Shown piece after piece: positions 49,356 to 63,588 of a stretch of 64,000 nt of DNA (position 1 is its first letter; every line of letters begins with the position of its first letter). A program made the position numbers and the translations under genes. Under the pieces are notes generated by a model, which saw only the letters and a list, made by a program, of their open reading frames with translations, had not been told where the DNA came from and did not search any database. The stretch is from contig CAZSSJ010000002.1 in NCBI GenBank assembly GCA_964609775.1, positions 19,260 through 83,259 on the forward strand, given 5' to 3'. Origin of the DNA: an uncultured Gammaproteobacteria bacterium. GTDB taxonomy: Bacteria > Patescibacteriota > Microgenomatia > JAMCZE01.

Positions 49356-50591
49356 ATGCGCATCTGTTCGCCACAACTAGGGATTTCTCCGGACTCAAAT
49401 CTTGGCGGCGAGGTCCACGATCGCGAAATGCTCAAATCCCTAGCAGACTTGGGGGTGGAGATCGACATCATTCTTCCTTTTGGAAAGAAGCACGAAGCTC
49501 ACAAAAATTGGCACTTTTATTATTTACTAACCCCAATAGTCTTTCCGCCAATAGTTTTCAACGCTCTAGTCTTACCCCATCTCTTTTGGATTTACTTTCG
49601 GCATAAATTCAATATTCTCCGCGTCCATTCTCCCTACTTCGTCGGGCTAGGAGCTTTGATTTTCAAATTGGTTTTTCCACGGATTTTAGTCATTGCCCAC
49701 TATCACCATTTTGAAGGCAATAAGGTTTATAATTTGATAGATAGCATTATCGCCAACAAGTTCGATTTAATCGTCACTGCTAGCAATGTGACTAAAAGCA
49801 AGTTAATAAACAAATTTGGCGTTTTGGAATCTAAAATTGCAATCATTCCCTACGGAGTATCTGCTAGCTTTGCTCCGCAAATTGTCGACCAACAAATTAT
49901 TCTTGAACCTGCGAATACCTCGTTGCTCTGCAGCGAGGATGAGCAGGCTCCAAGAAGAAACTCCGAGCCCAAGATACCTCGTCAGCCCTTCAGGTCTGAG
50001 CCTCAGGGTCGAAGACTTGCTGCGATGAGTTTCATTTCCAAGTATAAACTTCATGGAAAGAAACCGCTTCTTTATATTGGTCAGTTAATCAGTCGCAAAA
50101 ACATCCCCTTTCTACTTCAAGTAGTAAAGGCGCTACCTGAAGAATATATACTTTTGATCGCCGGTGATGGGCCATTAAAAAATCAACTACAAGACATGGT
50201 AAGGTCCTTACAACTAGATAACCGGGTGACATTTTGCGGTCATATTTCAGAAGAAGAAAAGCCGAAAATGATTTCCCTTGCCGATTTTTTTCTTTTTTCT
50301 TCAAGCAATGAAGGATTCGGACTATCAGTGTTAGAAGCAATGGCCTGCGGCAAAATTGTTATTGCCGCAAAACTTCCCGTCTTTCAACAGTTTATTGACA
50401 CCGGCAGAAACGGATTTCTTTTGGATCTTGATTCCCAGCGATGGGTGAAGACTATTTTATCTTTGGACCATAAACCACAGACCAAACGGTCTTTAGAAAA
50501 AAACGCCAGACAAAGTGCAAAAAAATTTAGCTGGAACAACTTTGCCAAAACCTATCTTCGTCGAGTAAATCATTCATTTCCTAGCCTATGA
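49356..50591 (+). CDS. GT4 (group 1, GT-B) glycosyltransferase with an extended charged interdomain linker
   Basis: Motifs: LGGEVHDREMLKSLADLG and SSSNEGFGLSVLEAMACGKIVIAAKLPVF. About 30 extra residues (SEDEQAPRRNSEPKIPRQPFRSEPQGRR) lie between the two Rossmann halves. Confidence 0.75.
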   Translation: MRICSPQLGISPDSNLGGEVHDREMLKSLADLGVEIDIILPFGKKHEAHKNWHFYYLLTPIVFPPIVFNALVLPHLFWIYFRHKFNILRVHSPYFVGLGALIFKLVFPRILVIAHYHHFEGNKVYNLIDSIIANKFDLIVTASNVTKSKLINKFGVLESKIAIIPYGVSASFAPQIVDQQIILEPANTSLLCSEDEQAPRRNSEPKIPRQPFRSEPQGRRLAAMSFISKYKLHGKKPLLYIGQLISRKNIPFLLQVVKALPEEYILLIAGDGPLKNQLQDMVRSLQLDNRVTFCGHISEEEKPKMISLADFFLFSSSNEGFGLSVLEAMACGKIVIAAKLPVFQQFIDTGRNGFLLDLDSQRWVKTILSLDHKPQTKRSLEKNARQSAKKFSWNNFAKTYLRRVNHSFPSL

Positions 50592-51367
50592 CAGTCACCA
50601 AGCTTTCTATAGTGCTACTTAAAAAATTGCGGCAAGCAACTCCACTTGCAGCAAAGCTCGTTTTTCTAACAGGGAAATCAACGCAAGCCCTTCACCCGAA
50701 GCACCTCGTCGAAATCGAAAAGCCTTGGTATCTTGATTATCTTTCAAAGAACGATATTGTTCTCGACCTCGGCTGTGGCAACGGTCAAAATTCCCTCAAG
50801 GCAGCCAAGAAGGCCAAACATGTATACGGACTCGACACAAACCAGGCCAGTCTTAATCAAGGAAGATCCTTCGCTAGTCGACACAAGATCACTAATATTA
50901 CCTTCTCATTTCATGATTTGAACAACAAGCTGCTCTACCCCGACCAACGTTTCGACCGAGTACTATTCCTGGATGTCCTAGAACACCTAGGGACCGCCAG
51001 TCGCCAGCAGATAATGGGCGAAATTCACCGGATTCTGAGAACCGATGGCCTGCTGCTCCTAGCCGTCCCTAATAGTCAAACATCTTGGAAAAAGACGCAA
51101 AGGTCTGTAAGCGTGGACTCATTTACCGATCCAGACCATAAAATTGAATATTCGCTTGACGGGATCAAAAAATTTTGTAGTAAATGTAAGTTTAAACAAT
51201 TAAATATTAGTGGTATTACTTATGACAGCCCTTATGCTCCCTTAATTGACATTGCTGGAGGATTTTCACTGCAGCTGTATAAAAAGCTATCACTTTGGAA
51301 AAAAAATAAGATGAAAGGTGGCTTAACTGAAAGTATCGGTTTCAGATTAGTTTGTCAAAAAATGTAG
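50588..51367 (+). CDS. Class I SAM-dependent methyltransferase
   Basis: ATGA overlap. Motifs: VLDLGCGNGQNS (motif I), VYGLD, FDRVLFLDVLEHL and LRTDGLLLLAVPN. Confidence 0.8.
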   Translation: MTVTKLSIVLLKKLRQATPLAAKLVFLTGKSTQALHPKHLVEIEKPWYLDYLSKNDIVLDLGCGNGQNSLKAAKKAKHVYGLDTNQASLNQGRSFASRHKITNITFSFHDLNNKLLYPDQRFDRVLFLDVLEHLGTASRQQIMGEIHRILRTDGLLLLAVPNSQTSWKKTQRSVSVDSFTDPDHKIEYSLDGIKKFCSKCKFKQLNISGITYDSPYAPLIDIAGGFSLQLYKKLSLWKKNKMKGGLTESIGFRLVCQKM

Positions 51368-51379
51368 CGCCATCTGATA

Positions 51380-52555
51380 ATGAAAATCGCATATATCGTA
51401 GACTATCTACCAAACTTAGATTCCAGGACAGATTTCAGTGGAGCAGAGGTCAGTGTCCAGCTGTTAGCGGCGGGTTTAAAAAAACACGGGGTCGAGATCA
51501 AGTTAGTTTCACCTGCCCAAGGTTTATATTCTTCACGAGGAAAAGTCTTTCCCTCTTTGCTGACAACAAATATTTTCTGGTTTTTTCTTTCCACTTTAAT
51601 AATTATCAGAAGCCTTCAGAGGGAAGAGATTGACTTGATTCACGCTCAGGGAAAGAACTCCCTAGTAGGAGCTTACTTGAGTAGTCTTTTTTTTAAAAAG
51701 CAACTTTTAGTTACCGTTAGGGACTATCGAGCCCTTTGTGACTTGGGTATGTGTTTTCTTCGGGGCAAGAAACACTGTACTTTCAAAAACTACTTTCAGC
51801 AGGACATTCCGTTTTTCGTCAGAAAATACAAGAAACAGACAGTTTTAAGATATCTCTATGCCTATCTTGTCGGGCTATACCAATATCCTCTTCGCCTTCT
51901 TTATCGTCATATTCTAAAAAAAGCTAATAAAGTCGTTTGTATCAGCATTGCCCAACAGAAGTTATACAATACATTTGGCATTGATAACACAATAGTAATT
52001 TATAACCCAGTGACTTTTGAAAAAGTCCACTATCAAAAGAAAAAACAATTATTTTTCGGCGGCAGATACACACTTGGCAAAGGAAAGGAAATTTTAAAAA
52101 TCATCCTTCCAAAATTCTTTCAACTTTATCCAGATTGGGAACTTATCTTTGCTGGTCGTGACAAGCTGGATATCGAACATCGAAACATCAGAACCCTTGG
52201 CCAATTGCCTTACAAGAGCTATCTAAGGTCAGTCGGGGAGTCATCCCTAGCGCTTGTTCCCTCTGTCTGGCCGGAGCCCTTCGGAAGGGCAGCGCTGGAC
52301 GCAATCTCTGTTGGGACACCGGTAGTTGCGACAAATGCTGGCGCCCTATCTGAAATAGTAGTTAGTGGCCGCTACGGAACCGTAAGTCAACCAAATACGC
52401 AAAGTTATTGGCAAGCCCTCCAAGAGGGAATGGCAAAAAGGAGCGGTCTTTCTGAACAGATCAAAAAAGACACCGAAAAATTGATCAAAAAATTTCAGGT
52501 CGATCCAGTTCAAGATCACCTCAGACTATATGAATCGTCACTACACAAATCTTGA
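51380..52555 (+). CDS. GT4 (group 1, GT-B) glycosyltransferase
   Basis: Motifs: MKIAYIVDYLPN..FSGAEV and VPSVWPEPFGRAALDAISVGTPVVATNAGALSEIV. Confidence 0.75.
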   Translation: MKIAYIVDYLPNLDSRTDFSGAEVSVQLLAAGLKKHGVEIKLVSPAQGLYSSRGKVFPSLLTTNIFWFFLSTLIIIRSLQREEIDLIHAQGKNSLVGAYLSSLFFKKQLLVTVRDYRALCDLGMCFLRGKKHCTFKNYFQQDIPFFVRKYKKQTVLRYLYAYLVGLYQYPLRLLYRHILKKANKVVCISIAQQKLYNTFGIDNTIVIYNPVTFEKVHYQKKKQLFFGGRYTLGKGKEILKIILPKFFQLYPDWELIFAGRDKLDIEHRNIRTLGQLPYKSYLRSVGESSLALVPSVWPEPFGRAALDAISVGTPVVATNAGALSEIVVSGRYGTVSQPNTQSYWQALQEGMAKRSGLSEQIKKDTEKLIKKFQVDPVQDHLRLYESSLHKS

Positions 52556-53150
52556 CTATCTATCGCGCTCGCGATGGGCTAGCTTTTACGTCCAAATTAA
52601 AGAAACCGTCAATCCCAAACCTGCCAACGTACTTGAAATCTGTAAGGGTTTCGGGCTCTTGTCTTTTGTCGTCAGAGGCATAGGAACAGACATTAAAACT
52701 TTAGATGTTGACCCTAAATTAAAGCCCGATTTTATTGGAGACGTACGTAGAATTCCCCTCAAAGCCAATTCTTTCGACGTTGTCACTTGTTTTCAAGTTC
52801 TTGAGCATCTTCCTTTTTCCGATTTCAAAATTGCCCTTTTGCAAATGAAACGAGTAAGTAAAAAATATATTCTTCTCTTTCTACCTGAACCCTATAGCAC
52901 CTTTGTCTATTTTGGCGCCAAGTTGATCCCGTTCATTCCTAAGCTTGAATTATTCCGAAAATTTGCTATGTCTGACCGATTTTTTCCGAAATTCGGGCTG
53001 AACAGTCCTCATTATTGGGAAATTGGAAGAAAAGGTGTTTCCTACCAAAAAGTTGAAAAATGTATCACAGCGTGCCAATTAAAAATTATTAAATCCTTTT
53101 ATCCGAAAGAAAACTTATATCACCACGTTTTCGTTTTGTCTAAATTATGA
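52530..53150 (+). CDS. Class I SAM-dependent methyltransferase (divergent motif I)
   Basis: Motifs: VLEICKGFGLLS, TLDVDP and FDVVTCFQVLEHLPFSDF. 26-nt overlap with the upstream gene. Confidence 0.6.
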   Translation: MNRHYTNLDYLSRSRWASFYVQIKETVNPKPANVLEICKGFGLLSFVVRGIGTDIKTLDVDPKLKPDFIGDVRRIPLKANSFDVVTCFQVLEHLPFSDFKIALLQMKRVSKKYILLFLPEPYSTFVYFGAKLIPFIPKLELFRKFAMSDRFFPKFGLNSPHYWEIGRKGVSYQKVEKCITACQLKIIKSFYPKENLYHHVFVLSKL

Positions 53151-54190
53151 CACTTGGAATTCTTTTGCCGATGGGGAGCAGCCTTGAAGACATGGAGCTT
53201 CATGGCCAAAAGGAACGTTTCCAAAAATACTACCTCAATGTCTATAGACAGAGCTTTGAAAAAGTTATTGTCTTTAGCTATAAGGACTCTCCCCTTCATC
53301 GCTACTTCTATTCCCTAGCTCTCCCGTTAGTCAAGCGCAAAGATTTCACCACATGCGACGTCTTCCGATGCTTTCATTTAAGTTCCACGCCCCCGGCCAT
53401 TGTCGGGAAAATTCTATTTAACAAAAAGTTCGTCTTCAATTACAACTATGATTATAAAAAATGGGCGGTTATCGAAAAAAAACCCTTCCTGGTTCCATTG
53501 ATTCAACTTTTAGAGCAGGTAAGTTTTAGGTTGGCAAACCATATTTTTGTCGCCGACGAAAGAATGGCCGAATTTGCCAGAACGCTCAGAAGTGCAACAA
53601 AAATTACGAACATCCCCAACGGCGTGGACGTCACCATCTTTAGGCCAGCATTGCATAACAAAAAAAACAGCCAAAAAGTTATCCTTTCTGTAGGTCGGCT
53701 AGAAGAGCAAAAAAACTATGGGCAGCTTATCGCTGCCGTTGCCAACATTAGCCCAAAACCACATTTAATCATCATTGGTCGGGGAGCTTTAAAGGAGACT
53801 TTAGTTAGGCAAGCAGGTCGATTGGCAGTGGATATGACAATTATTGATGTGGTCCCCCACCTAGAGTTGCCAAAATATTATCAATCTGCTGATGTTTATG
53901 TTCAACCCTCCTTAGCGGAGGCTCCGGTAAAAACTCTTCTCGAAGCAATGAGCTGCCAATGTGCTTGTGTAGGGACCAGGGTTCCTGGCATTTCGGGAGT
54001 CTTAGAAGATGGAAAAAATGGATTGCTAGCCTCCTTAGAAACGAAAGATCTTCAGAAAAAGATTCAACAGGTTTTAAATAATCCAAAAACGGCAAAAAAA
54101 CTAGGGGAGCAAGCCAGAGTGACAATCATCAACCGCTTCAATATCAAAAAAATGATTAACAAAGAAATCTCCATTCTGAAAAGCATATGA
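53147..54190 (+). CDS. GT4 (group 1, GT-B) glycosyltransferase
   Basis: ATGA overlap. Motifs: ILSVGRLEEQKNYGQLI and QPSLAEAPVKTLLEAMSCQCACVGTRVPGISGVL. Confidence 0.7.
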   Translation: MTLGILLPMGSSLEDMELHGQKERFQKYYLNVYRQSFEKVIVFSYKDSPLHRYFYSLALPLVKRKDFTTCDVFRCFHLSSTPPAIVGKILFNKKFVFNYNYDYKKWAVIEKKPFLVPLIQLLEQVSFRLANHIFVADERMAEFARTLRSATKITNIPNGVDVTIFRPALHNKKNSQKVILSVGRLEEQKNYGQLIAAVANISPKPHLIIIGRGALKETLVRQAGRLAVDMTIIDVVPHLELPKYYQSADVYVQPSLAEAPVKTLLEAMSCQCACVGTRVPGISGVLEDGKNGLLASLETKDLQKKIQQVLNNPKTAKKLGEQARVTIINRFNIKKMINKEISILKSI

Positions 54191-55242
54191 CAGTCTGCTA
54201 TTTTGGCTACTACCGACCCTTTCATTCTAGAAATCGCAACCTCATACTTGGTTTACGGAGAAATGGTGTTAACGTAATTGAATGCAATGCTGTAGTGCCG
54301 TTTATTCAAGGAAGATACTTTTGTCTTCTTGCAAAATACTTCCGCTATGGCACAGGGGCGGATGTGATTATTGTTGGTTTTCCTGGGCACACAGATGTGC
54401 CCCTTGCCTGGGCTTTAGCGAAAATTTTTCACCGAAAGTTAGTTTTTGACGCTTTTACTTCTATGTATTTAAACCTTGTGTATGACCGCCAGGATGTTGC
54501 TCAACATTCTTTGAAGGCTTTAGTCTACTGGCTAGTCGACTGGTTAAGTTGCCTGCTATCAGATAAAGTTCTGGTCGATACTTCCGATAACCAACAATAT
54601 TTTGCTAAAGAGTTTTCTGTTAAGGTGGATAAAATTGCCTGTATTCCTGTATGTTTTGACGAAAGTATTTTTAAACCGCAAAAAGCGATTAATGGTGATA
54701 GTTGTATCGTCGGTTGGCACGGCACTTTCCTCCCGCTTCAGGGGGTGGAGACTATTATCGCAGCAGCGCAAAAACTTAAGAACGTGAATATAAATTTTCG
54801 CCTTTTAGGCTACGGGCGAGAGAAAGACATGAGTGTTAAATTAGTAAAAAAGAAGGGCTTGAAAAATATTTATTTTTTTGATCGAGTAAATTACCAACGC
54901 CTGCCAGATTTTATCAGTGGCTGTGATATTTATCTTGGAGGACCGTTTGGCCAGAATTTAAAGGCCAACATGGTTATACCAAATAAGGTAGTAGAGGCAA
55001 TGGCCATGGGCAAGCCGGTAATTTGTGCTGACACACCTGCCATGCGGCGAGCTTTTGTTTCGGGAAAAGAAGTTTTGTTAACAACACAAAGTAATCAGCT
55101 TGCTTTAGCTAGGGCGATAATAAGTCTGAAGGAAAGCCCCAAGCTACGCGAAACCCTGGGTCATAACGCACTAAGGGCTGCTTCTTTCTATACTAGCAAG
55201 AATATTGGTCGCTTATTACTTCAAAAAATCGCCCAGCTATAA
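54187..55242 (+). CDS. GT-B glycosyltransferase (GT4-like)
   Basis: ATGA overlap. Motifs: VGWHGTFLPLQGVETII and IPNKVVEAMAMGKPVICADTPAMRRAF. Confidence 0.6.
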   Translation: MTVCYFGYYRPFHSRNRNLILGLRRNGVNVIECNAVVPFIQGRYFCLLAKYFRYGTGADVIIVGFPGHTDVPLAWALAKIFHRKLVFDAFTSMYLNLVYDRQDVAQHSLKALVYWLVDWLSCLLSDKVLVDTSDNQQYFAKEFSVKVDKIACIPVCFDESIFKPQKAINGDSCIVGWHGTFLPLQGVETIIAAAQKLKNVNINFRLLGYGREKDMSVKLVKKKGLKNIYFFDRVNYQRLPDFISGCDIYLGGPFGQNLKANMVIPNKVVEAMAMGKPVICADTPAMRRAFVSGKEVLLTTQSNQLALARAIISLKESPKLRETLGHNALRAASFYTSKNIGRLLLQKIAQL

Positions 55243-55256
55243 TATACTTTCTAAAG

Positions 55257-56462
55257 ATGCGTAAGATAGGTTATCTAGAGGGGTTAAGAGGCATCGCTGC
55301 GTTCATTGTCGTCCTTAATCATTTTGCCGTATCCTTTTTCCCGGCATTGTATAACGGAAAGATAACCCAGGCTCATACCTTATCCTGGCTAGAATCGGCT
55401 ATCGCTAGTAGCCCTATTAATTTTTTTTATAATGGCAACTTTGCCGTCGCTGTTTTCTTTGTTCTTAGCGGCTTTGTCCTCTCATACAACTATTTCAAAA
55501 CTCTACGTGTAGAGGTAATTGTGTCCGGAGCAATTAAACGATATTTCCGGCTAGTGATTCCGGTTGCCTTTACTGTCCTGTTGGCCTACTTATTCATGAA
55601 ATTTTCATTTTTCTTTAACAAACAGGCCGGAGAGATAAGTTATTCGACTTGGTGGCTATCAAGATATTGGGAATTTGATACCAATCTAATAGATGTTTTA
55701 AATACCGCATTTATTAGAGTGCTCTTTTTTGGTGATGTTAGATTTAATCACATATTGTGGACGATGCGTTATGAGTTTTTTGGATCCATAATTGTATTCA
55801 CGACGTTATTTATCTTTCGACAAAGAAGGTATCGATATGCGGCTTATATCATTCTTAGTTTATGGTTTTTAAGGTCATACTATCTTCCATTTATCCTTGG
55901 TTTGGTTCTCTCCGACCTATATAGTCTTAAAAGATACACAGTTAAACTAAATAAAGATTTAAAAAGAATTTGTCTTCTATTGCTGGGATTTGTTGGTTTA
56001 TATTTAAGTTCCTGTCCCAGTGGAGCCCCAATAAGAAATACAATCTATGCCCCCTTGTTTATCTTGGATCGTTATCCCTACACCTTTTATCACATCTTAG
56101 GGGCTTTAATGCTCATGATTACTCTTTTAAATTGGACAGCGCTGCAAAACTTATTTTCAAACAGACTATTTATCTTTTTGGGCAGAATATCGTTTTCTAT
56201 GTATTTGCTTCATTTGATAGTGATTGGTTCCTTATCCAGTCTACTGTTAATTATTTTGACTCACTATTTTACCTATCCTGTTGCAGCTATGCTCGTCTTT
56301 GTGATATCGATGCCGGTCTTAGTATTTACCTCCTATTTAATGTACGTGCTGGTGGATAGTAAGGGTACCATCCTATCTAAAATTATTTGTCGTTGGCTCA
56401 CTGGGTCAATCAGGCGGCAACAATTCGCCAACCAGTTTGTCCTTGGTGGCAAAAAATCATAA
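55257..56462 (+). CDS. Acyltransferase family 3 membrane O-acyltransferase (OafA/WecH-like)
   Basis: The motif IGYLEGLRGIAAFIVVLNHF is typical of the Acyl_transf_3 N-terminus. About 10 TM segments. Confidence 0.8.
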   Translation: MRKIGYLEGLRGIAAFIVVLNHFAVSFFPALYNGKITQAHTLSWLESAIASSPINFFYNGNFAVAVFFVLSGFVLSYNYFKTLRVEVIVSGAIKRYFRLVIPVAFTVLLAYLFMKFSFFFNKQAGEISYSTWWLSRYWEFDTNLIDVLNTAFIRVLFFGDVRFNHILWTMRYEFFGSIIVFTTLFIFRQRRYRYAAYIILSLWFLRSYYLPFILGLVLSDLYSLKRYTVKLNKDLKRICLLLLGFVGLYLSSCPSGAPIRNTIYAPLFILDRYPYTFYHILGALMLMITLLNWTALQNLFSNRLFIFLGRISFSMYLLHLIVIGSLSSLLLIILTHYFTYPVAAMLVFVISMPVLVFTSYLMYVLVDSKGTILSKIICRWLTGSIRRQQFANQFVLGGKKS

Positions 56463-56471
56463 AATAGATTT

Positions 56472-57284
56472 ATGGAAATAATCATTCGACCAAAAAGTGT
56501 CTTCAATCTAGATTTTAAAGAAATCTGGCATTATCGCGAACTTTTTTACGTCTTTGCCTGGCGAGATATTAAAGTCCGTTATAAACAAACAGTTTTAGGC
56601 ATCTCGTGGGCTCTTTTTCAACCTCTAGTTACGACTGGAATATTTAGCATTTTTTTTGGAAAAATTGCCAAAATCCCTTCTGACCATATCCCATACCCGT
56701 TATTTGTTCTTACTGGATTGGTTTTTTGGAGCTTTTTTTCAAATAGTGTTACGGCGGCAAGTCAAAGCATGGTCGCCAGTGAAAACATCATCAAAAAAGT
56801 CTACTTTCCACGCCTGATTATTCCACTTTCCTCAATTGTGACAGCCGGGCTTGACTTTCTAATTTCCTTTTTGATGCTATTACTAGTAATGGTTTACTAC
56901 CGGTATTTTCCTCAATTTACCAGCCTGCTAGTTCTCCCAGTGTTGTTGCTTACTTTAATTCTCACTGCTGGGGGAATCGGTTTATTTACATCAGCGATTA
57001 ATGTCAAATATCGCGATGTCAGATATATCCTGCCGTTTTTCATCCAAATTGGGCTCTTCGTTACTCCCATTATCTATCCAATAAGTGTTATCTTGGACTA
57101 CCGTAAATGGCTTCTGATTCTCAATCCTCTGACCTCAGTAATCGAAACAGCGCGTGCCCTCTATTCGGGCAAACCAATAAATTATTTTCTCATCTCTTTA
57201 GGCTTTGCGATTTCGGTCGTCATATTTTCTCTCGGCCTTTACTATTTTCGCAAGACCGAAGCTTTCTTTGCTGACGTCGCTTAG
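56472..57284 (+). CDS. wzm: ABC-2 type polysaccharide/teichoic-acid exporter permease
   Basis: Motif: FKEIWHYRELFYVFAWRDIKVRYKQTVLGISWALFQPLVTT. Six hydrophobic segments. It sits immediately upstream of the ATPase gene. Confidence 0.85.
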   Translation: MEIIIRPKSVFNLDFKEIWHYRELFYVFAWRDIKVRYKQTVLGISWALFQPLVTTGIFSIFFGKIAKIPSDHIPYPLFVLTGLVFWSFFSNSVTAASQSMVASENIIKKVYFPRLIIPLSSIVTAGLDFLISFLMLLLVMVYYRYFPQFTSLLVLPVLLLTLILTAGGIGLFTSAINVKYRDVRYILPFFIQIGLFVTPIIYPISVILDYRKWLLILNPLTSVIETARALYSGKPINYFLISLGFAISVVIFSLGLYYFRKTEAFFADVA

Positions 57285-57293
57285 ACTTTTGCT

Positions 57294-58574
57294 ATGGACA
57301 ATATTATTGAAGTCAGTGATCTATCTAAAAAGTACCGTCTCGGCCAAGAACAGCGCTATTACACGCTACGGGACAGCATTGCGTCTTTGTCTTCGCTTCC
57401 CAAACAGCTTTGGGGGGTGTGGGGAAATTTTAGCGAAATTCTTGAAAAAAATGAATTTTGGGCTCTTAAAGACGTTTCTTTTTCGGTCAAACGAGGCGAA
57501 GTTGTTGGAGTCATCGGGAAAAACGGTGCTGGTAAAAGCACTCTGCTTAAAATTCTGTCTCGCATCACTCCTCCAACCTATGGTCAAGCTCGACTGCGTG
57601 GTCGTGTAGCTAGCCTTCTGGAGGTTGGAACTGGTTTTAACCAGGAATTAACAGGCCGCGAAAATATCTTTCTCAACGGTGCTATCTTAGGCATGAGCCG
57701 CCAAGAGGTAAGAAGAAAATTCGACGAGATAGTCGCTTTTGCCGAAGTCGAAAGGTTCATCGACACGCCAGTGAAACGTTATTCTTCAGGGATGTATTTG
57801 CGCCTTGCCTTTGCCGTCGCCGCCCATTTGGAACCAGAAATACTTCTGGTTGACGAAGTCCTTTCCGTTGGTGATGCCCAATTTCAAGAAAAGAGTTTGG
57901 GAAAAATGCGCGAAATTACCCAGCAGGAAGGCAGGACAATAATATTTGTCAGTCACAACATGGGTGCAATTAACGCTCTTTGCAACCGGTGTTTATTGCT
58001 TGAACAAGGGCAGACTGTCGCTTTCGGCGAAACCGCCGAGGTCGTCACCAAATACTTATCGTCGAAAAGAAAATCAGTCAACAATATTTGGAAGATTCCG
58101 AAAAAACCGTCCGTCCCATTTTATGTTTCTAAAATGTGGTTAACTGACGAAAACGGGAAAGCTATTTCTCAAATAGAGATGGGAGAAAATGTTAACCTCA
58201 ATCTAGAAGCTAAAATTACTCAGGAAATCAGGGATGGAGTCCTTGCCGCTCTCGTCGCTACGGAAGGATCACCGCTTCTTTATATCTATGATACTGACAA
58301 CTCCCCAGAACTGCGTCGGAAGCGTCGGGTAGGTAAATATTTTGAACAGGTTCTCCTGCCCACATCCATATTTAAAGAAGGCGACTACACGATCAGTATA
58401 ATGATCGGCCACGGACAAGATAATCTCACCGACCAAAACTGTGAAATTTCCTTCAAGATCGTTAACACCAAAAGGGATTTGACACACCTCAGTTTCCGTA
58501 AAAACAGACTAGGATTTCTTTATCAGGAAACCCACTGGGAGGTGCGCCAACTTGGACGTCAAAAAGAGTACTAA
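57294..58574 (+). CDS. wzt: ABC exporter ATP-binding protein with a C-terminal extension (Wzt/TagH-like)
   Basis: Walker A GKNGAGKST, signature YSSGMYLRLAFA, Walker B ILLVDEVLSVGD. An extra ~170-aa C-terminal region (FYVSKMWLTDENGKAISQIEMGENVNLNLEA...) resembles a Wzt_C beta-sandwich. Confidence 0.85.
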   Translation: MDNIIEVSDLSKKYRLGQEQRYYTLRDSIASLSSLPKQLWGVWGNFSEILEKNEFWALKDVSFSVKRGEVVGVIGKNGAGKSTLLKILSRITPPTYGQARLRGRVASLLEVGTGFNQELTGRENIFLNGAILGMSRQEVRRKFDEIVAFAEVERFIDTPVKRYSSGMYLRLAFAVAAHLEPEILLVDEVLSVGDAQFQEKSLGKMREITQQEGRTIIFVSHNMGAINALCNRCLLLEQGQTVAFGETAEVVTKYLSSKRKSVNNIWKIPKKPSVPFYVSKMWLTDENGKAISQIEMGENVNLNLEAKITQEIRDGVLAALVATEGSPLLYIYDTDNSPELRRKRRVGKYFEQVLLPTSIFKEGDYTISIMIGHGQDNLTDQNCEISFKIVNTKRDLTHLSFRKNRLGFLYQETHWEVRQLGRQKEY

Positions 58575-59520
58575 CCACCTTGTCCGGTACTTAGACAGGG
58601 CCTTTGGAGTCAGATCAGTTTTTCCTCTAAACCCGGTCAGAAAAAGGGCCAGAAAGGAACTTCTTAGACGGCTATCATCCGGAATTTATAAATTCCAGGA
58701 GATAAATTGTCCCTCCTGTGCCAGTCATAGATTTACAATCTTGGCTAAACAGGACATGTACGCCCTGCCGCATCTTGTGGTCATTTGCCTCTGTTGCTCG
58801 CTGGTTTATACGCGACAAAGATTGACGGAAAAATCTTTGTCAAACTTTTATCAAAATCTCTACCAGCAGTTAGACCGGGGTAGGGATTTGCCAAAAGAAG
58901 AATATTTCCGTTTAGAATCTAAAAAAGGACAAGACATTTTCCACTATATGTTCAATAACTCTTTGCTACCTCCTAAAAACACACTCATTGTTGAAATTGG
59001 TTGTGGTGTTGGAGGCGTACTTTATCCATTCCGAAAGTACGGTTATGAGATAATAGGTTGCGATTTCAATCAAGACTATATCAATTTTGGCATCACCACC
59101 CGCGGTCTTAATCTAAAAGCTGGAGGATTGAAAGAGATATCAAAAGTCCTCTTTAAAAGCAAAAAGAAAGTAGGTCTAGTCATTTATGAACAAGTATTTG
59201 AACATCTACCTGACCCCAAAAAAGAATTAACACAACTTAAAAAAATTATGACATCAAACACTTTACTCTATCTTGGCGTTCCAGGAATTAAAAATATTCG
59301 TCATCACTACCAGGAAAATTTTCGTGCATTCCTTCAATTTCCCCATTTGACCTATTTTGAACTGTCAACTCTTAAATCTCTGCTTGCTAGTCAGGGATTT
59401 CAATTATTAAAGGGGACTGAGAGAATTAGAGGAGTTTTTAAACTGGGTCAGAAAAGAAATATCCTCCTCACCAACCCGGATGGGATTATAACCTATATTC
59501 AAAATTTGAAATTTATCTAA
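58552..59520 (+). CDS. Class I SAM-dependent methyltransferase with an N-terminal CxxC...CxxC zinc ribbon
   Basis: TTG start overlapping wzt by 23 nt. Motifs: CPSC..(x30)..CLCC, VEIGCGVGGVL (motif I), GCDFN and VIYEQVFEHLPDP. Confidence 0.7.
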   Translation: MDVKKSTNHLVRYLDRAFGVRSVFPLNPVRKRARKELLRRLSSGIYKFQEINCPSCASHRFTILAKQDMYALPHLVVICLCCSLVYTRQRLTEKSLSNFYQNLYQQLDRGRDLPKEEYFRLESKKGQDIFHYMFNNSLLPPKNTLIVEIGCGVGGVLYPFRKYGYEIIGCDFNQDYINFGITTRGLNLKAGGLKEISKVLFKSKKKVGLVIYEQVFEHLPDPKKELTQLKKIMTSNTLLYLGVPGIKNIRHHYQENFRAFLQFPHLTYFELSTLKSLLASQGFQLLKGTERIRGVFKLGQKRNILLTNPDGIITYIQNLKFI

Positions 59521-59532
59521 TTTGCCATCCCT

Positions 59533-60258
59533 ATGGCTTTGGAAAAGCAAGACCTAACGCTGCTCCTTAGATTAAGAAAACAATATCCCGAAGGAAAAAA
59601 TCTGTGTATTTTAGGCGATTGCACTTTTCATTTTACCGATGAAACACTCAATCGAAAGTGTGGAATTAAATTTAAAGGGCAAGCAAAACAGACGACTTTA
59701 AAGTCTTTTAGCCAAGCCTATGGCTTCGAAACAGCGGTGACTATAGATATTGACGGCAATCCAACCCTTAAATTCGATTTACAAAAGAAGCTCCCTCGGA
59801 ATTTGATCGGAAAATTTGATTGGGTTATTGATGCTGGCACGTTATTCTGGTGTTTTGATATTGCCGGGATTTGGGAAAATATCCTCCTGCTTCTTAAGCC
59901 TCACGGTTGTGTGTTTCACATTGATGCCTTAACCGGCTATTTTGGCCGGGGTTATTATTCTTTGCATCCACGGTTGTTTAGCGATTTCTATAGCCAGAAT
60001 GGCCTAAAAATTATTACGTTCGCTTACCGTCTCAGGCCACCATCCCTTAATATTATCGAAAAAAGGTTCCGGAGACTTGAGTGGCAACCTTTTCCGCCAA
60101 GCCACATGTTTTTAAAAAATGCGGATAAATTTAATATGGAATTTTCTGATAAAAACACCACGGACCCGTCAATTGTGCCAAATGATGCCGTTTTGGCCTG
60201 TTTCGCGGTAAGGGCGAAAAAAGTGCCTTTCCAAACCGTTTTACCGTCAAATATTTAA
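59533..60258 (+). CDS. Hypothetical protein, divergent methyltransferase-fold candidate
   Basis: The order of NLCILGDCT, TIDIDG, FDWVIDAGTLFW and LLKPHGCVFH mimics class I MTase motifs I, II, IV and post-IV, but the glycine-rich loop is degenerate. Confidence 0.35.
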   Translation: MALEKQDLTLLLRLRKQYPEGKNLCILGDCTFHFTDETLNRKCGIKFKGQAKQTTLKSFSQAYGFETAVTIDIDGNPTLKFDLQKKLPRNLIGKFDWVIDAGTLFWCFDIAGIWENILLLLKPHGCVFHIDALTGYFGRGYYSLHPRLFSDFYSQNGLKIITFAYRLRPPSLNIIEKRFRRLEWQPFPPSHMFLKNADKFNMEFSDKNTTDPSIVPNDAVLACFAVRAKKVPFQTVLPSNI

Positions 60259-60276
60259 TTACTTGAGTTAATACCT

Positions 60277-60915
60277 GTGCCAAATAACGCCGATATTCTT
60301 ATTGTTGTAGCTCACCCGGACGACGAGTCCTTATGGTTTGGCGAAGGAATTCACCAGCTGGTAGCTAGGGGCAAAAATATAATTGTCCTTTGCCTCTCAG
60401 GTGGATCAAATCCAATCCGAAGCGCCGAATTTAAAAAAGCCTGCTTAAGACTCAAAGTTAAAGGCAAGATGCTGAACAATCCTGATCGAGGGATGCCGCG
60501 TTTGCAGACTAGCCCAAGTGACCTAGATTTGGTCGATTGGCATCCCGAATATGTGATAACTCATGCACCGTGGGGAAATGAACGACATCATCCCCACCAC
60601 CAACAGTGCTTTCAAATCTCCCGGTCATGGGCTTTAAAAGGGGGAATTCCGTTTGGTTATTTCTCGGAAAAAAAACCTCTCATTCTGAATCCTTTAATAG
60701 AAACGATCGAGTTTTCAGTCAACCGTCCGAGGAAAAACGCCCTTTTGTCCATCTATGATTCAGAAATTTCCGGACTTCGCGACTACGAAGCCTACCACCA
60801 CGACAAGGAATATCTAATTATCGAGCGAAAATATTTTTCCCGCATTTCCAAGATATTCACTAGGCTTTGCCAAACCTTAAGTTCTATTTTCGAATCGCGA
60901 GGACCACGAACGTGA
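60277..60915 (+). CDS. PIG-L/LmbE-family N-acetylglucosaminyl deacetylase
   Basis: GTG start. The signature ILIVVAHPDDESLWFG (AHPDDE) is followed by HHPHH. Confidence 0.8.
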   Translation: MPNNADILIVVAHPDDESLWFGEGIHQLVARGKNIIVLCLSGGSNPIRSAEFKKACLRLKVKGKMLNNPDRGMPRLQTSPSDLDLVDWHPEYVITHAPWGNERHHPHHQQCFQISRSWALKGGIPFGYFSEKKPLILNPLIETIEFSVNRPRKNALLSIYDSEISGLRDYEAYHHDKEYLIIERKYFSRISKIFTRLCQTLSSIFESRGPRT

Positions 60916-60966: not shown

Positions 60967-60986
60967 CCTCGGGCGTAAGCCCGAGG
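60967..60986 (+). terminator. Perfect 8-bp GC-rich stem with a GTAA (GNRA) loop in a 96-bp spacer
   Basis: CCTCGGGC-GTAA-GCCCGAGG, read directly. The following sequence (AGTTTCATAC) has only a weak U tract, so terminator function is uncertain. Confidence 0.3.
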
Positions 60987-61011: not shown

Positions 61012-62154
61012 ATGCCGTGCATATTAAAAAAACTGGCAAGGAAAAGTCCGGGTATAGTCACTTTTACTCATAACGAAGCCCTATATGGTTTACCGGCGAG
61101 ATCGCGTAAGGTTAAAAACTACATTACCCAAACCTCTGGGAAAAGATGGATTTATGGCGTTCATCTTCAGGGCAGCTTGAAACATCTGAAGGAGTGGCCA
61201 CTTGAGCCCTGGCAAGCATTCATTTCTTGGTCGAACCCAAAGTCCCCATTTCTGTCAAATGTCCCCACCGAAAAACTAATTGATATTAATCACATTAATC
61301 TTCTACCCGAATTTGGGTTTACCCCACGCCCTAAGATTTGGGACATCATCATTATTTCTCGGCCATCAAAAATTAAAAGAATTCAGGAATCAGTTTTCAT
61401 CATTAAAAAATTAATGTTGAAAAGACCTGAGTTAAAAACAATTTTTATCGTTCCAACTCCCAGTCGGCAAGCCAAAGACATTGACCGGAGTTTTTTTGAA
61501 TTGCCCAAAAGGTTATTTTCTACTAAAGAGATGAAAAATACATCATTTATTGTTTCACCGACTGAAAGTTTCGGAAATTTTCCCGTTTCCTCAGAACTAA
61601 TATCAAAATTGATTTCACAGTCAAAATTTTTACTGTTAACTTCTCACCGTGAAGGTGGGCCACGGGCGATTGGCGAAGCGCTTCTGGCGGGAACACCCTG
61701 CATTATATCTAAAAATTTAGACACGGGAATCGTGGGCGTTTTTGACAATAAAAATACTCTCACAATCGACGACAATATCGATCTAGCCACGCAGCAAATT
61801 AATCAAGGCTTGCAAAATTACTCTTCATTTAAAATTGATGATAAAAAAATCTGCCGCTTTTTCAGTGAGCGGCATAATAAGCCAATATTTAAAGCCAAAT
61901 TATCAAAACTACTAACACAAATGAGTTACCAGGTGGCGGGAGAATGGTATCTTGAAGATTTGTCTTTTCGGCTCTGCGGTCACGGTCGAAAATTCAGTTT
62001 TCAATCCCTGGACGACGACCGACAATTCTTTTTTTGGTTTGATAAGATTACTTCAGTAAATCCATATGATGAAGATGGTCTGATTTATCACCCCGAATCA
62101 TTATCAGACTATGCTCTTCGGAAACTAAAAAGGTTATGGCAGACAAGACGCTGA
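61012..62154 (+). CDS. Hypothetical protein, GT-B (GT4-like) C-terminal Rossmann domain candidate
   Basis: Motifs: WDIIIISRPSKIKR and LLLTSHREGGPRAIGEALLAGTPCIISKN (E-x7-E-like). The N-terminal half is not recognisable. Confidence 0.4.
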   Translation: MPCILKKLARKSPGIVTFTHNEALYGLPARSRKVKNYITQTSGKRWIYGVHLQGSLKHLKEWPLEPWQAFISWSNPKSPFLSNVPTEKLIDINHINLLPEFGFTPRPKIWDIIIISRPSKIKRIQESVFIIKKLMLKRPELKTIFIVPTPSRQAKDIDRSFFELPKRLFSTKEMKNTSFIVSPTESFGNFPVSSELISKLISQSKFLLLTSHREGGPRAIGEALLAGTPCIISKNLDTGIVGVFDNKNTLTIDDNIDLATQQINQGLQNYSSFKIDDKKICRFFSERHNKPIFKAKLSKLLTQMSYQVAGEWYLEDLSFRLCGHGRKFSFQSLDDDRQFFFWFDKITSVNPYDEDGLIYHPESLSDYALRKLKRLWQTRR

Positions 62155-63015: not shown

Positions 63016-63588
63016 GGGTAGGGAAGTTGGGTCAACTCTTTTAGCCTGAAGTAATAAATTACAAAAATCTCGTACCGCGCCGCTACCAGCCTCCCGTGAT
63101 GCTGTGAAATGGGCGATGTCCTTGATAATCTTCTCCGCTCCGGCAGGGCAAGCCGCCAGACCGACCTTTTTCATCACTGGGTAATCGCCCAAATCATCGC
63201 CCATAAACGCACATTCATCCCAAGCAAGACCCAGTTTTTTCAGCCAATTTCCAACGACCTTGACTTTCCCTTCTCCCGCCGCCTGGACAAAAACGTCTAC
63301 TTTAGGCCACTTGCCGGATTTAGCCGAAGGCAAACTGTTTAATTTTTCAGCGAATTTTGGCAAGAAATTGTCGCCCGTTGCAGTGACAAAGCAGATTCTC
63401 AGGCCTATCCCGCGCAGAAGCGAAATCCCCTGGCCATCAACATGGCTTCTAACGCGTTGGACTTCACCCTTTTCGGAGTCAAACCAGACGGTCGCCGAAA
63501 AAAGGACCCCGAGCGACCCAAAGCCGGCCGCTTTAATTTTTTTAGCTTGAGCTAGAACCTTACTCTTTTGTGTCTTTCTTTTTACCAT
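63007..63588 (-). CDS. KdsC-like HAD-IIIA family protein lacking the DxD nucleophile motif
   Basis: Motifs HVDGQGISLL, CFVTATG, GEGKVKVV, FMGDDLGDYPVMKKVGLAACP and GSGAVRDFCNLLL align to KdsC. The position of DVDGVL reads LFSATVW, and there is no Asp in the first 37 residues. Confidence 0.6.
   Translation of the reverse strand: MVKRKTQKSKVLAQAKKIKAAGFGSLGVLFSATVWFDSEKGEVQRVRSHVDGQGISLLRGIGLRICFVTATGDNFLPKFAEKLNSLPSAKSGKWPKVDVFVQAAGEGKVKVVGNWLKKLGLAWDECAFMGDDLGDYPVMKKVGLAACPAGAEKIIKDIAHFTASREAGSGAVRDFCNLLLQAKRVDPTSLPLN

Follow-up and report, generated by a model that had tools for sequence, protein, structure and literature searches.

The gene block at 49356-60915 of the window (the whole 64,000-nt stretch of DNA analysed here, from a groundwater CPR bacterium) encodes a Wzm/Wzt-type ABC transporter whose ATPase, Wzt, carries a long C-terminal extension, raising the question of what this extension reads on the exported glycan and which enzymes would make the feature that is read. 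A chain-terminating cap is present in every characterised system with a Wzt-type carbohydrate-binding domain (CBD), the terminal residue is in all cases what the CBD binds, and capped O antigens cannot be exported without it (PMC9445017; PMC11231755). The gene content and the related loci suggest, with a probability slightly better than even, that the block forms the core for assembly of a surface glycan and for its ABC-transporter-dependent, cap-gated export, and that the cap is built by a conserved module beside wzt and not by a WbdD-like enzyme. The polymer and transporter genes are the following.

49356..50591, plus strand: GT4 glycosyltransferase, 411 aa (Glycos_transf_1 E=1e-33, Glyco_transf_4 E=2e-16)
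50588..51367, plus strand: MT1, class I SAM methyltransferase, 259 aa (Methyltransf_31/25/11 E=1e-16 to 2e-20)
51380..52555, plus strand: GT4 glycosyltransferase, 391 aa (Glyco_transf_4 E=2e-14, Glycos_transf_1 E=2e-14)
52530..53150, plus strand: MT2, small methyltransferase-like protein, 206 aa (Methyltransf_11 33.6 bits, Methyltransf_23 30.5 bits)
53147..54190, plus strand: GT4 glycosyltransferase, 347 aa (Glycos_transf_1 E=6e-31)
54187..55242, plus strand: GT-B (group 1) glycosyltransferase, 351 aa (Glycos_transf_1 E=2e-21)
55257..56462, plus strand: Acyl_transf_3 membrane acyltransferase, 401 aa (PF01757 E=1e-21)
56472..57284, plus strand: Wzm, ABC-2 permease, 270 aa (ABC2_membrane E=3e-19)
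57294..58574, plus strand: Wzt, 426 aa, nucleotide-binding domain (NBD) to about residue 256, then ~170 residues more
57294..58064, plus strand: Wzt NBD, residues 1-257 (ABC_tran E=1e-21)
58065..58574, plus strand: Wzt CBD, residues 258-426 (CBD-only profile against solved Aquifex aeolicus CBDs)

An ORF and coordinate check placed all block genes on the plus strand in tight packing, with gaps of 6, -4, 12, -26, -4, -4, 14, 9, 9, -23, 12 and 18 nt in the series through the PIG-L gene, and the GC content of the block is 0.407 compared to 0.46-0.47 in the flanks. MT1 shares 4 nt with the GT4 gene before it. MT2, with overlaps of 26 and 4 nt to the genes on either side, is a weak match that nevertheless exceeds the Pfam cut-offs for Methyltransf_11 (21.2) and Methyltransf_23 (27). 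The acyltransferase, with about six hydrophobic segments, probably O-acylates the glycan. Wzm matches the NCBIfam galactan Wzm/RfbD model at E=2e-22, under the curated cut-off, and is 35-53% identical to Wzm of related loci. The GT4 enzyme at 49356..50591 has only generic GT4 similarity (21-30%) in related loci and belongs to the variable, polymer-building half of the locus. Neither an initiating phosphoglycosyl transferase nor a ligase or oligosaccharyltransferase was found in the window.

Most of this inventory had been given by the initial annotation, and the methyltransferases at 50588 (strong) and 52530 (weak), the acyltransferase_3, Wzm, the ~170-aa extension of Wzt, the 23-nt overlap of a zinc-ribbon methyltransferase with wzt, a divergent methyltransferase-fold protein and a PIG-L deacetylase were all recovered. 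Of the five GT4/GT-B genes it had counted, four lie inside the block and the fifth, at 61012-62154, lies outside. The MOP flippase noted at 13.4 kb is present (13423-14877, Polysacc_synt_3 E=6e-47). However, it is ~42 kb away, the intervening DNA contains a gene on the minus strand (34475-35122) as well as several 200-400-nt gaps, and neither its placement in one operon with the block nor the idea of two export routes in that operon was borne out, the flippase linkage being unsupported.

The closest solved relative of the window Wzt is the WzmWzt transporter of A. aeolicus (PDB 7k2t, 8dku, 6o14, 8dky), the best PDB match covering NBD plus CBD at E=1e-67, and both systems comprise an ABC-2 permease, an NBD and a C-terminal jelly-roll CBD. 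The Pfam Wzt_C family (PF14524), named as a check by the initial annotation, scored 24.1 bits against the C-terminal region, below the gathering cut-off of 30.4, and phmmer with the CBD alone gave no match in the PDB, but a CBD-only profile matched the isolated A. aeolicus CBD crystal structures 8dky and 6o14 at E=6e-10. A full-length Wzt profile scored 336 bits against full-length A. aeolicus Wzt and 299 bits against the A. aeolicus NBD alone, the CBD contributing ~38 bits. The AF2 model of the CBD is all-beta (pLDDT ~77-95 over most of residues 260-370, lower beyond), and Foldseek aligned 420-430 columns to full-length A. aeolicus Wzt. By profile and model, the extension is thus, as the initial annotation had supposed, a genuine carbohydrate-binding domain, and it is homologous to the cap-binding CBD of A. 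aeolicus. The latter binds a methylated terminal sugar, the 3-O-methyl-mannose cap, and gates loading of the chain (PMC9445017). The two CBDs are only weakly similar, and the residues of the A. aeolicus methyl pocket are not kept in the sequence alignment (T346 to S368, A348 to M370, M353 to Q375, W362 to D380); therefore, the ligand cannot be read from the pocket. The systems also differ in their neighbouring genes and in the host, which here is a CPR bacterium, expected to be without LPS and outer membrane.

The initial annotation had considered that the WbdD logic of cap addition may operate here. The large methyltransferase(-kinase) WbdD is anchored to the membrane and contains a long coiled-coil ruler; a coiled-coil ruler is found in every characterised Klebsiella/E. 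coli terminator (PMC11231755). The window resembles the WbdD-Wzt systems of E. coli O8/O9a and K. pneumoniae O3/O5 in its ABC-dependent glycan, its GT4-type transferases and the presence of both methyltransferases and a Wzt CBD. In contrast to WbdD, the methyltransferases here are single-domain proteins of 206-322 aa. Pfam and NCBIfam domain searches found no WbdD-like kinase domain in the block, no coiled-coil was found among the block proteins, the adjacent methyltransferases included, and WbdD was absent from the solved-structure matches of the block methyltransferases (generic methyltransferases only for MT1, no PDB match for MT2). Control of chain length by a ruler is therefore without support.

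Candidates for making a cap instead lie at and beyond the 3' end of wzt, and the functional unit extends beyond 60915 and out of the window.

58537..58544, plus strand: Shine-Dalgarno sequence GGGAGGTG, read from the sequence, inside the wzt 3' end, 7 nt ahead of the TTG (58552)
58552..59520, plus strand: Zn-ribbon class I methyltransferase, 322 aa, TTG start (Methyltransf_23 E=4e-15)
59533..60258, plus strand: unk241, divergent class I methyltransferase-fold protein, 241 aa (assigned via relatives; no Pfam match of its own)
60277..60915, plus strand: PIG-L/LmbE-family de-N-acetylase, 212 aa (PF02585 E=4e-16; AHPDDE motif in the translation)
60967..60986, no strand assigned: perfect GC-rich hairpin CCTCGGGC-GTAA-GCCCGAGG, in a 96-nt gap, the sole sizeable gap of the block
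61012..62154, plus strand: GT380, divergent GT4-like retaining GT-B glycosyltransferase, 380 aa (AF2 pLDDT 92.7; E214-x7-E222 motif)
62368..63015, plus strand: EamA/DMT-family membrane protein (EamA E=9e-13)
63007..63588, minus strand: KdsC/KDN-9-P-phosphatase-like HAD phosphatase (Hydrolase_3 E=2e-5)
63560..64000, minus strand: CTP_transf_3, CMP-sugar cytidylyltransferase, 3' part, cut by the window end (fragment CTP_transf_3 E=0.006)

The Shine-Dalgarno sequence within the wzt 3' end implies translational coupling of wzt and the Zn-ribbon methyltransferase, whose ORF shares exactly 23 nt with wzt. The four cysteines of its CxxC-22-CxxC motif (C53, C56, C79, C82) are nearly invariant among homologues and, together with the Shine-Dalgarno sequence before the TTG, identify the long 58552-59520 ORF as the right one; the 254-aa start given by public gene callers is ruled out on the same grounds. 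A word-indexed protein search returned ~10 homologues and a species-genome scan 51 loci, and the gene adjoins CTP_transf_3 in 26/54 loci, NeuB in 25/54 and Wzt in only 9/54. Its closest solved relatives are the NDP-sugar C-methyltransferases TylC3 (4rv9, E=4e-14) and TcaB9 (~3e-7), so its substrate may be an activated sugar; this kinship touches, for this gene, the initial caveat of methyltransferases acting on nucleotide-sugar precursors only. In all three proteins, a four-cysteine zinc domain at the N-terminus precedes a class I SAM domain. However, the window protein, at 322 aa compared to 416-426 aa, is without the C-terminal sugar-binding domain of the other two, gave no Methyltransf_13 or Methyltransf_14 Pfam match, and has CMP-ulosonic genes around it where theirs have dTDP-deoxysugar genes.

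The fold of unk241 was assigned through its 1883 relatives at E<1e-3, 35 of which were aligned; 17 of these matched Methyltransf_12 and 13 Methyltransf_23. The 96-nt gap with its strong hairpin separates the PIG-L gene from GT380, in whose motif E214 is invariant and E222 nearly so. The EamA/DMT gene overlaps a 102-aa ORF (62136-62444), and its product, with about four hydrophobic segments, is not kept in related loci. The HAD phosphatase belongs to the CMP-ulosonic-acid gene set; it scored 71.7 bits with NCBIfam KDN-9-P phosphatase and 66.5 bits with KdsC, both under the cut-offs, and the full cytidylyltransferase gene (L001, 16267-16968, minus strand) resembled PseF (E=2e-33) and KdsB (E=2e-16), again both under cut-off. 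Just past the window are a PhyH dioxygenase, a GT-B-like ~460-aa protein (the u457 family, ~460-530 aa) and CMP-nonulosonic-acid synthesis genes. The sole structural matches of the u457-family profile were to WbbB of R. terrigena (GT99 beta-Kdo terminator) at a non-significant E of ~0.4; the invariant H-P, S, E and G residues align, and the WbbB catalytic Asp (Asp232 equivalent) is missing.

Across all 40 Wzt homologues the NBD identity to the window Wzt is flat (59-70%), while the CBD identity is bimodal, being 32-46% only in L007, L010, L013, L063, L064, L065, L069 and L070 and 14-27% elsewhere. These eight loci and the window, with a CBD identity of 32% or more, were compared with three loci carrying dissimilar CBDs, giving a sample of 12 loci picked by similarity and not as a systematic survey. 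Counting the window, GT380 is present in all nine loci of this CBD type and is the gene most tightly linked to it, and it is the candidate for the capping transferase; PIG-L occurs in 8/9, unk241 or a methyltransferase fused to GT380 in 8/9, the u457 family and CTP_transf_3 in 7/9 each, and the Zn-ribbon methyltransferase in 6/9 (absent from L063, L069 and L070). Homologues of unk241 with 32-50% identity occur in 7/8 of the related loci, and GT380-methyltransferase fusions (P0137 and P0138) are found in a locus of the same CBD type (38% identity) that has no stand-alone unk241, PIG-L or Zn-ribbon methyltransferase. Both unk241 and PIG-L are absent from 3/3 loci with dissimilar CBDs, in which a GT380-like match is weak at most (23%). 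The upstream GT4 genes, MT1, MT2 and the acyltransferase are not conserved among loci of the same CBD type, as would be expected if the polymer were variable and the cap conserved, and a CBD that varies with its neighbours while the NBD stays constant is the pattern expected of a specificity domain. Of the four methyltransferase-like genes of the initial annotation, 58552-59520 and 59533-60258 travel with the CBD type, in line with its suggestion of a methyl cap, and those at 50588 and 52530 do not. Methyltransferases adjoin wzt in every related locus examined, and CMP-ulosonic genes flank the whole Wzt clade, members with dissimilar CBDs included. The synteny can stem from shared descent instead of function.

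We propose that the four upstream GT-B enzymes would build up a lipid-linked glycan chain on the cytoplasmic side of the membrane, with MT1, MT2 and the acyltransferase decorating it, and that the distinct gene set around wzt would add a distinctive residue or short motif to the non-reducing end. This set would comprise GT380, unk241, PIG-L and the Zn-ribbon methyltransferase and, past the window, the PhyH dioxygenase, the GT-B-like protein and the CMP-nonulosonic-acid genes. The Wzt CBD would bind the chain-end cap, and Wzm/Wzt would thread capped chains only. What we observe are the identities of the genes, a CBD homologous to a cap-binding domain of solved structure, and a CBD type that co-varies with neighbouring genes; from these we infer that the co-varying genes make the cap and that it gates export, the cap possibly being a methylated, perhaps de-N-acetylated hexose and/or a nonulosonic acid. 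The exporter CBD would then be a "checkpoint" domain, and the conserved, uncharacterised genes next to the transporter would make the cap that it reads. Against this reading stand the sub-threshold Wzt_C score, the unmatched pocket residues, the 96-nt gap with its hairpin before GT380, the non-significant u457-WbbB match, and the result that neither a terminator with a coiled-coil ruler nor, in the window, an initiating transferase, ligase or oligosaccharyltransferase was found.

In the simple form of the initial annotation's model, a plain O-methyl or methyl-phosphate cap would be placed on the last repeat-unit sugar by stand-alone MT1, MT2 or the Zn-ribbon enzyme and its methyl group read by the CBD, much as for the glycans of E. 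coli O8/O9a and A. aeolicus and for the S-layer glycan of G. stearothermophilus; GT380, PIG-L and the nonulosonic genes would then serve the repeat unit or another glycan. Four methyltransferase-like genes in the block, methyltransferases beside wzt in each related locus examined, the 3-O-methyl-mannose bound by the closest solved CBD and the coupling of a methyltransferase gene to wzt, comparable to wsaE-wzt in G. stearothermophilus (PMC2943079), are consistent with such a cap. Nevertheless, we judge it unlikely: kinase and coiled-coil were not found, neither MT1 nor MT2 is kept with the CBD type, and an Asp aligns at the position of the methyl-stacking Trp362, while the Zn-ribbon enzyme resembles NDP-sugar C-methyltransferases, is associated far more with NeuB and CMP-transferase genes than with Wzt and is missing from three of the nine loci.

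The CBD might otherwise read an internal or polymer-wide feature or another terminus, the nonulosonic acid, the GT380 sugar and their modifications being constituents of a repeat unit or homopolymer, so that the neighbourhood would reflect a shared polymer and not a shared cap. The legionaminic-acid O chain of Legionella pneumophila is exported by Wzm/Wzt, and its LPS loci contain wzm/wzt together with legionaminic-acid genes, which agrees with such a reading, as does the flanking of the entire Wzt clade by CMP-ulosonic genes irrespective of CBD type. It appears quite improbable to us, since the polymer-type genes (four GT-B, MT1, MT2 and the acyltransferase) differ among loci of the same CBD type, the CBD binds a terminal residue in all characterised cases, and the conserved transferase-like proteins are GT380 and the GT-B-like u457 only, which fits single additions better than polymerisation. 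Very unlikely, in our view, is a structural or regulatory appendage (for dimerisation or ATPase modulation), with export not gated by a cap and with methyltransferases and PIG-L tailoring nucleotide-sugar precursors. The sub-threshold Wzt_C score, the loss of the known pocket residues, the missing ruler-type terminator and the NDP-sugar substrates of the Zn-ribbon enzyme's relatives would suit it, but the homology to a cap-binding CBD is significant, and the CBD shows a selection pattern tied to neighbouring genes at constant NBD. Moreover, transporters of uncapped glycans do without such a domain, as seen for mycobacterial galactan Wzt and TarH, PDB matches with chains of 260-270 aa; the K. 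pneumoniae O2a-type transporter is likewise not known to have one.

With regard to the cap-gated reading, the Kdo-capped glycans of K. pneumoniae O12 and R. terrigena (WbbB, GT99 beta-Kdo) and of K. pneumoniae O4 (GT137 alpha-Kdo) provide examples in which the Wzt CBD reads a CMP-activated ulosonic acid and not a methyl group. Similarly, CMP-ulosonic genes and a GT-B-like protein whose structural matches are to WbbB only flank the transporter here. In contrast to those systems, the synthase is NeuB-type (nine-carbon sugars) and not KdsA, no coiled-coil was found, the u457-WbbB similarity is not significant, with the catalytic Asp missing, and GT380, PIG-L, two methyltransferases and PhyH are additional conserved genes. 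In the slg cluster of the monoderm G. stearothermophilus NRS 2004/3a, wzm, wzt and the next gene overlap, the S-layer glycan receives its methyl cap from the methyltransferase part of WsaE, a fusion protein that also has GT domains, and the GC content is under the genome average (PMC2943079). The wzt/methyltransferase overlap, the GT380-methyltransferase fusions in relatives and the low block GC are likenesses to this cluster; its rhamnose-pathway genes, WsaB-type Wzy_C oligosaccharyltransferase and WbaP-type initiator were, in contrast, not found in the window. Two of the related CPR loci, L069 and L070, carry a Wzy_C-TPR protein.

The gene content ascribed in the initial annotation to the block at 49356-60915 was confirmed by an ORF and family scan, except for the number of GT-B genes. 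Four of the five claimed GT4/GT-B genes lie inside this range, and the fifth, encoding a 380-aa transferase (GT380), lies beyond it. Apart from the four GT-B genes, the following plus-strand genes make up the block and its immediate downstream border.

50588-51367, plus strand, methyltransferase (MT1)
52530-53150, plus strand, methyltransferase (MT2)
55257-56462, plus strand, Acyl_transf_3 gene (AcT3)
56472-57284, plus strand, wzm
57294-58574, plus strand, wzt; product with NBD (residues 1-257) and carbohydrate-binding domain, CBD (residues 258-426)
58552-59520, plus strand, zinc-ribbon (Zn-ribbon) methyltransferase, overlapping wzt
59533-60258, plus strand, 241-aa protein (unk241)
60277-60915, plus strand, PIG-L
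61012-62154, plus strand, GT380, past the block end

The GC content of the block is 0.407, compared to 0.462 and 0.474 in the flanks. Its sole sizeable intergenic gap, the 96 nt between PIG-L and GT380, carries a strong GC-rich hairpin (60967-60986) with a perfect 8-bp stem, a GTAA loop and no clear T-tract on the plus strand, which may represent a transcript boundary or processing site before GT380. A promoter scan detected 35 promoter-like sites where 32.9 were expected by chance, hence no excess. The PIG-L product scored 60.2 bits against PF02585 (cut-off 28.2), has the metal-binding motif AHPDDE at residues 12-17, and belongs to the PIG-L/LmbE de-N-acetylase family.

The products of the adjacent wzm and wzt genes, which are spaced by 9 nt, match ABC2_membrane (E=3e-19) and ABC_tran (E=1e-21), respectively. 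The closest PDB matches of the latter product are Wzt, TarH and TagH, i.e., exporters of O antigen and teichoic acid. The pair qualifies as a Wzm/Wzt-type ABC-2 polysaccharide exporter, and neither product reached an NCBIfam equivalog cut-off. The C-terminal extension of Wzt had been taken for a carbohydrate-binding module that the Pfam model Wzt_C (PF14524) should detect; this model, present in most Wzt homologues of 45-55% identity, gave 24.1 bits (E=4e-5) on the window Wzt and thus missed its gathering cut-off of 30.4 bits. A phmmer search with the CBD alone against the PDB returned nothing relevant, and a profile was needed. The alignment of the full window Wzt with its A. aeolicus counterpart extends across the CBD, and the Wzt family profile scored 336 bits against the full-length A. 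aeolicus protein vs 299 bits against an NBD-only construct, the CBD adding 38 bits. Moreover, a CBD-only profile of 21 sequences matched the crystal structures of the isolated A. aeolicus CBD, 8dky and 6o14 (E=6e-10). The AF2 model of Wzt (pLDDT 83.4 overall) shows an all-beta C-terminal domain with pLDDT ~77-95 over most of 260-370, and the Foldseek alignments spanned 420-430 columns with the full-length A. aeolicus protein vs ~256 with NBD-only chains. Because of these profile, AF2 and Foldseek results, the possibility that the extension bears no similarity to carbohydrate-binding folds fails, and the domain is, by homology and modelled fold, a Wzt CBD as initially proposed.

The pockets of such CBDs differ with the cap. 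In that of A. aeolicus, L300, T346, A348 and W362 make up the pocket to which 3-O-methyl-mannose binds (PMC9445017). By alignment this pocket is not conserved in the window CBD, where T346, A348 and W362 correspond to S368, M370 and D380, and the trap-loop residue M353 aligns with Q375; the ligand of the window CBD therefore cannot be read from the aligned pocket residues.

A chain terminator of the WbdD type, on which the logic previously suggested for this block was modelled, was not found. Its four methyltransferase-like proteins are single-domain proteins of 206-322 aa without a match to a kinase family, and a heptad heuristic, applied to the proteins of the block and to its downstream neighbours, gave no coiled-coil beyond those within globular domains, so that neither of the features anticipated in the methyltransferases next to the exporter was found. 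WbdD was also absent from the PDB matches of all four. In Klebsiella and E. coli, a coiled-coil ruler is present on every terminator (PMC11231755).

Comparison of related loci showed which genes accompany the window type of CBD. The main result came from comparing the two domains of Wzt separately: the NBDs of 40 homologues share 59-70% identity with that of the window Wzt, whereas CBD identity is 32-38% for P0002, P0003, P0004 and P0006 and 14-27% for the remaining homologues; by tblastn it is 34-46% in loci L007, L010, L013, L069 and L070. At a threshold of at least 32% CBD identity, nine loci were grouped (the window, L007, L010, L013, L063, L064, L065, L069 and L070), and all nine contain a GT380 homologue. 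PIG-L is present in 8/9, as is unk241 or, in its place, a methyltransferase fused to GT380, while the u457 family (GT-B-like proteins encoded past the window end) and CTP_transf_3 each occur in 7/9 and the Zn-ribbon methyltransferase in 6/9. L066, L067 and L068, three loci whose CBDs are dissimilar, are without unk241 and PIG-L, and have CMP-ulosonic genes and other methyltransferases. Since these controls carry them too, CMP-ulosonic genes were rejected as a discriminating marker; they accompany the Wzt clade as a whole, and the genes that discriminate between CBD types are, as judged from these comparisons, GT380, PIG-L and unk241. The upstream GT4, MT1, MT2 and AcT3 genes show generic similarity at most between loci. 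A constant NBD, a CBD co-varying with a fixed gene set and variable polymer genes would be expected if this set makes the structure that the CBD reads.

GT380 (AF2 model pLDDT 92.7) has a GT-B fold nearest to GT4 and an E-x7-E motif; it falls among the GT4-like retaining GT-B enzymes and not among the sialyl- or Kdo-transferases. Two members of its family, P0137 and P0138, bear a fused C-terminal methyltransferase. The fusion locus L069 retains the CBD type (38% identity) in the absence of stand-alone unk241, PIG-L and Zn-ribbon methyltransferase, and the fusion seemingly links the GT380 product with methylation. The fused methyltransferase is not a specific relative of unk241, the Zn-ribbon enzyme, MT1 or MT2 (best E=0.3-1.5), and its sole relative is a methyltransferase in L010; the fusion would therefore support a functional link and not orthology. 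The methyltransferase fold ascribed to unk241 itself was substantiated, as 1883 relatives were found and 17 of 35 aligned members match Methyltransf_12. Itself devoid of Pfam matches, unk241 ranks as a divergent class I methyltransferase.

The genes following the window were read from locus L001, which carries a CMP-transferase (PseF-like or KdsB-like), PhyH, a NeuB-AP_endonuc_2 fusion and u457 past the window end. Adding 47293 to an L001 coordinate gives the window coordinate.

L001 17926-19818 (window-equivalent 65219-67111), NeuB-AP_endonuc_2 fusion, NeuB_NnaB 300 bits
L001 19877-21250 (window-equivalent 67170-68543), u457, 3.2 kb past the window end

The u457 family (~460-530 aa; L007, L010, L013, L064, L069 and L070) has invariant REHP and YSS motifs, no family assignment and weak GT-B signals. 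Four of the five PDB matches of its profile are to WbbB, the GT99 beta-Kdo terminator of R. terrigena, and these are weak and not significant (E=0.39-0.48); the invariant residues H325-P326, S369, E374 and G379 align with WbbB, whereas WbbB Asp232 is not conserved. Genes for CMP-ulosonic supply (NeuB, CTP_transf_3 and HAD) are present. Fusion of NeuB to AP_endonuc_2, a xylose-isomerase-like TIM barrel, was also seen in L039, L051, L061 and L067, and recurs beside the Zn-ribbon methyltransferase in unrelated genomes. This fusion suggests that an unusual nonulosonic acid is made in a coupled isomerase/synthase step.

The Zn-ribbon ORF, reported to overlap wzt by 23 nt, proved to be real. Public gene calls (L001-L006) begin this gene at Met69 (254 aa), splitting the CxxC...CxxC ribbon, whereas the homologues extend upstream of Met69, with C53, C56, C79 and C82 nearly invariant, and a strong SD (GGGAGGTG) is located within wzt, 7 nt before a TTG at 58552. 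The homologue extension and the SD thus support the TTG start. About 10 homologues were obtained in a word-indexed protein search and 51 loci in a scan of species-representative genomes, the top identity of any locus in that scan being at most 41%. Within 10 kb of the gene in these 51 loci and three metagenomic ones (L007, L010 and L009), CTP_transf_3 was found in 26/54, NeuB in 25/54, a KdsC-like HAD in 14/54 and a Wzt NBD in 9/54. Among solved structures, the protein is closest to TylC3 (E=4e-14) and TcaB9, two NDP-sugar C-methyltransferases that likewise combine a 4-Cys zinc N-domain with a SAM domain. In contrast to these, the Zn-ribbon methyltransferase has no C-terminal substrate domain and no Methyltransf_14 match, and is assigned to a related but distinct family. 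Because of its neighbours and its relatedness to TylC3/TcaB9, the gene is assigned primarily to a CMP-ulosonic-acid cassette, and its product may have an activated sugar as substrate.

We propose that the block encodes a cap-gated ABC-dependent glycan pathway, functional statements throughout being computational inferences. The variable upstream genes would assemble the chain and modify it, its terminal structure would come from the conserved genes surrounding wzt, and the CBD would check this structure before export. As for the cap chemistry, GT380 could add a hexose or hexosamine, which PIG-L might de-N-acetylate and unk241 or the fused methyltransferase might methylate; u457 could transfer a nonulosonic acid, which the Zn-ribbon enzyme may methylate. 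The candidate cap module, comprising GT380, unk241 or the GT380-fused methyltransferase, PIG-L, the Zn-ribbon methyltransferase, PhyH, u457 and NeuB-type CMP-sugar genes, is distributed over CPR bacteria (Microgenomates and Parcubacteria) and metagenome contigs, the MAG with L013 being labelled Bifidobacteriaceae. Hence, we speculated, with considerable doubt, that the genes grouped with wzt might constitute a previously undescribed, widespread class of ruler-free cap machinery for ABC-dependent glycans, with a composite cap (e.g., an amino sugar and/or a nonulosonic acid, both in methylated form) read by a matching Wzt CBD subfamily on a CPR surface or S-layer glycan.

To our knowledge, what is understood of cap-gated export through a Wzt CBD comes from Aquifex and a few O antigens of proteobacteria, the caps we know of are limited to methyl, methyl-phosphate and Kdo, every terminator known to us has a coiled-coil ruler, and we are aware of almost no experimental work on the envelopes and surface glycans of CPR bacteria. 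Both the transporter and its checkpoint logic have precedents; this locus varies from them in its CPR host, in having no terminator of the ruler type, and in the conserved, uncharacterised candidate cap module with a CBD subfamily to match. A search of a literature library found no paper linking CPR bacteria with Wzt. If the module makes a cap, this would imply new cap chemistry and new, ruler-free families of terminator enzymes, and would extend the checkpoint logic to CPR bacteria; the 170-aa CBD (ligand binding) and the 380-aa transferase (single-residue capping) provide handles for experiment.

Among the scanned window ORFs of at least 150 aa, the family scan recognised no LCP, no initiating phosphoglycosyl transferase and no Wzy_C-type ligase or oligosaccharyltransferase, and in the latter two respects the window is unlike the Gram-positive S-layer glycan (slg) pathway. 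L069 (189-2399, minus strand) and L070 (1-2120, minus strand) encode a large Wzy_C-TPR fusion adjoining GDP-mannose dehydratase/reductase genes and wzm/wzt, with no counterpart recognised in the window. This protein may act on the exported glycan as a ligase or O-oligosaccharyltransferase, and is reminiscent of WsaB and WsaA in the pathway for the S-layer glycan of G. stearothermophilus, in which the wzm, wzt and terminator genes overlap (PMC2943079). In L063, L066, L067, L069 and L070, small genes of the toxin-antitoxin or mobile-element type, including PIN, KilA-N, PemK, PhdYeFM/ParE, Uma2 and 23S_rRNA_IVP, sit between wzm and wzt, a gap of 9 nt in the window.

Four window proteins are identical to NCBI entries of Microgenomates group bacterium GW2011_GWA1_48_10, namely Wzt (KKU92402.1), Wzm (KKU92403.1), PIG-L (KKU92399.1) and GT4 (KKU92410.1), and Rifle-aquifer contigs of up to 140 kb carry the same sequence, which identifies the host as a CPR/Patescibacteria bacterium. 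A glycosylation super-cluster on one strand, exceeding 64 kb, takes up the whole window. Polytopic GT-C enzymes predominate in 1-49350, where seven or eight of the numerous GT2 and GT4 enzymes are GT2; the further genes on the plus strand are as follows.

1854-8616 and 20347-22557, four YfhO-type GT-C genes
10100, 23183, 24867, 26810, 29717, 31249, 32907 and 46352, among others, ~ten PMT_2-type GT-C genes
8613 and 37536, two PTPS_related genes
28399, one GT87 gene
40880, one PIG-V-like gene
358, 11676, 16645, 36082 and 45235, five family-less polytopic proteins, 7-10 predicted TM segments each
13423-14877, MOP flippase

The genome of this CPR host probably measures ~1 Mb, and a cluster of this size would be a large investment for it. 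The placement of the exporter and the MOP flippase in one operon, as initially claimed, is unsupported because ~42 kb, several gaps and a minus-strand gene at 34475-35122 separate them. The latter, located in the middle of the GT-C array, is the sole minus-strand gene of the first 62 kb and encodes a 215-aa protein with a PaaX_M/Cas2-like domain (E=3e-17). An enolase-superfamily (MR_MLE_C) gene, unusual for a glycan locus, lies at 48342-49349, leaving 6 nt before the first GT4 gene, and its closest NCBIfam families are Ala-Glu epimerase, o-succinylbenzoate synthase and acid-sugar dehydratases. Near the window end, a 102-aa hydrophobic ORF (62136-62444) overlaps an EamA-family ORF (62368-63015) by 77 nt in another frame; this pair, which is not kept in related loci, could represent either a DMT transporter that has been split or frameshifted, or a flippase made of two parts.
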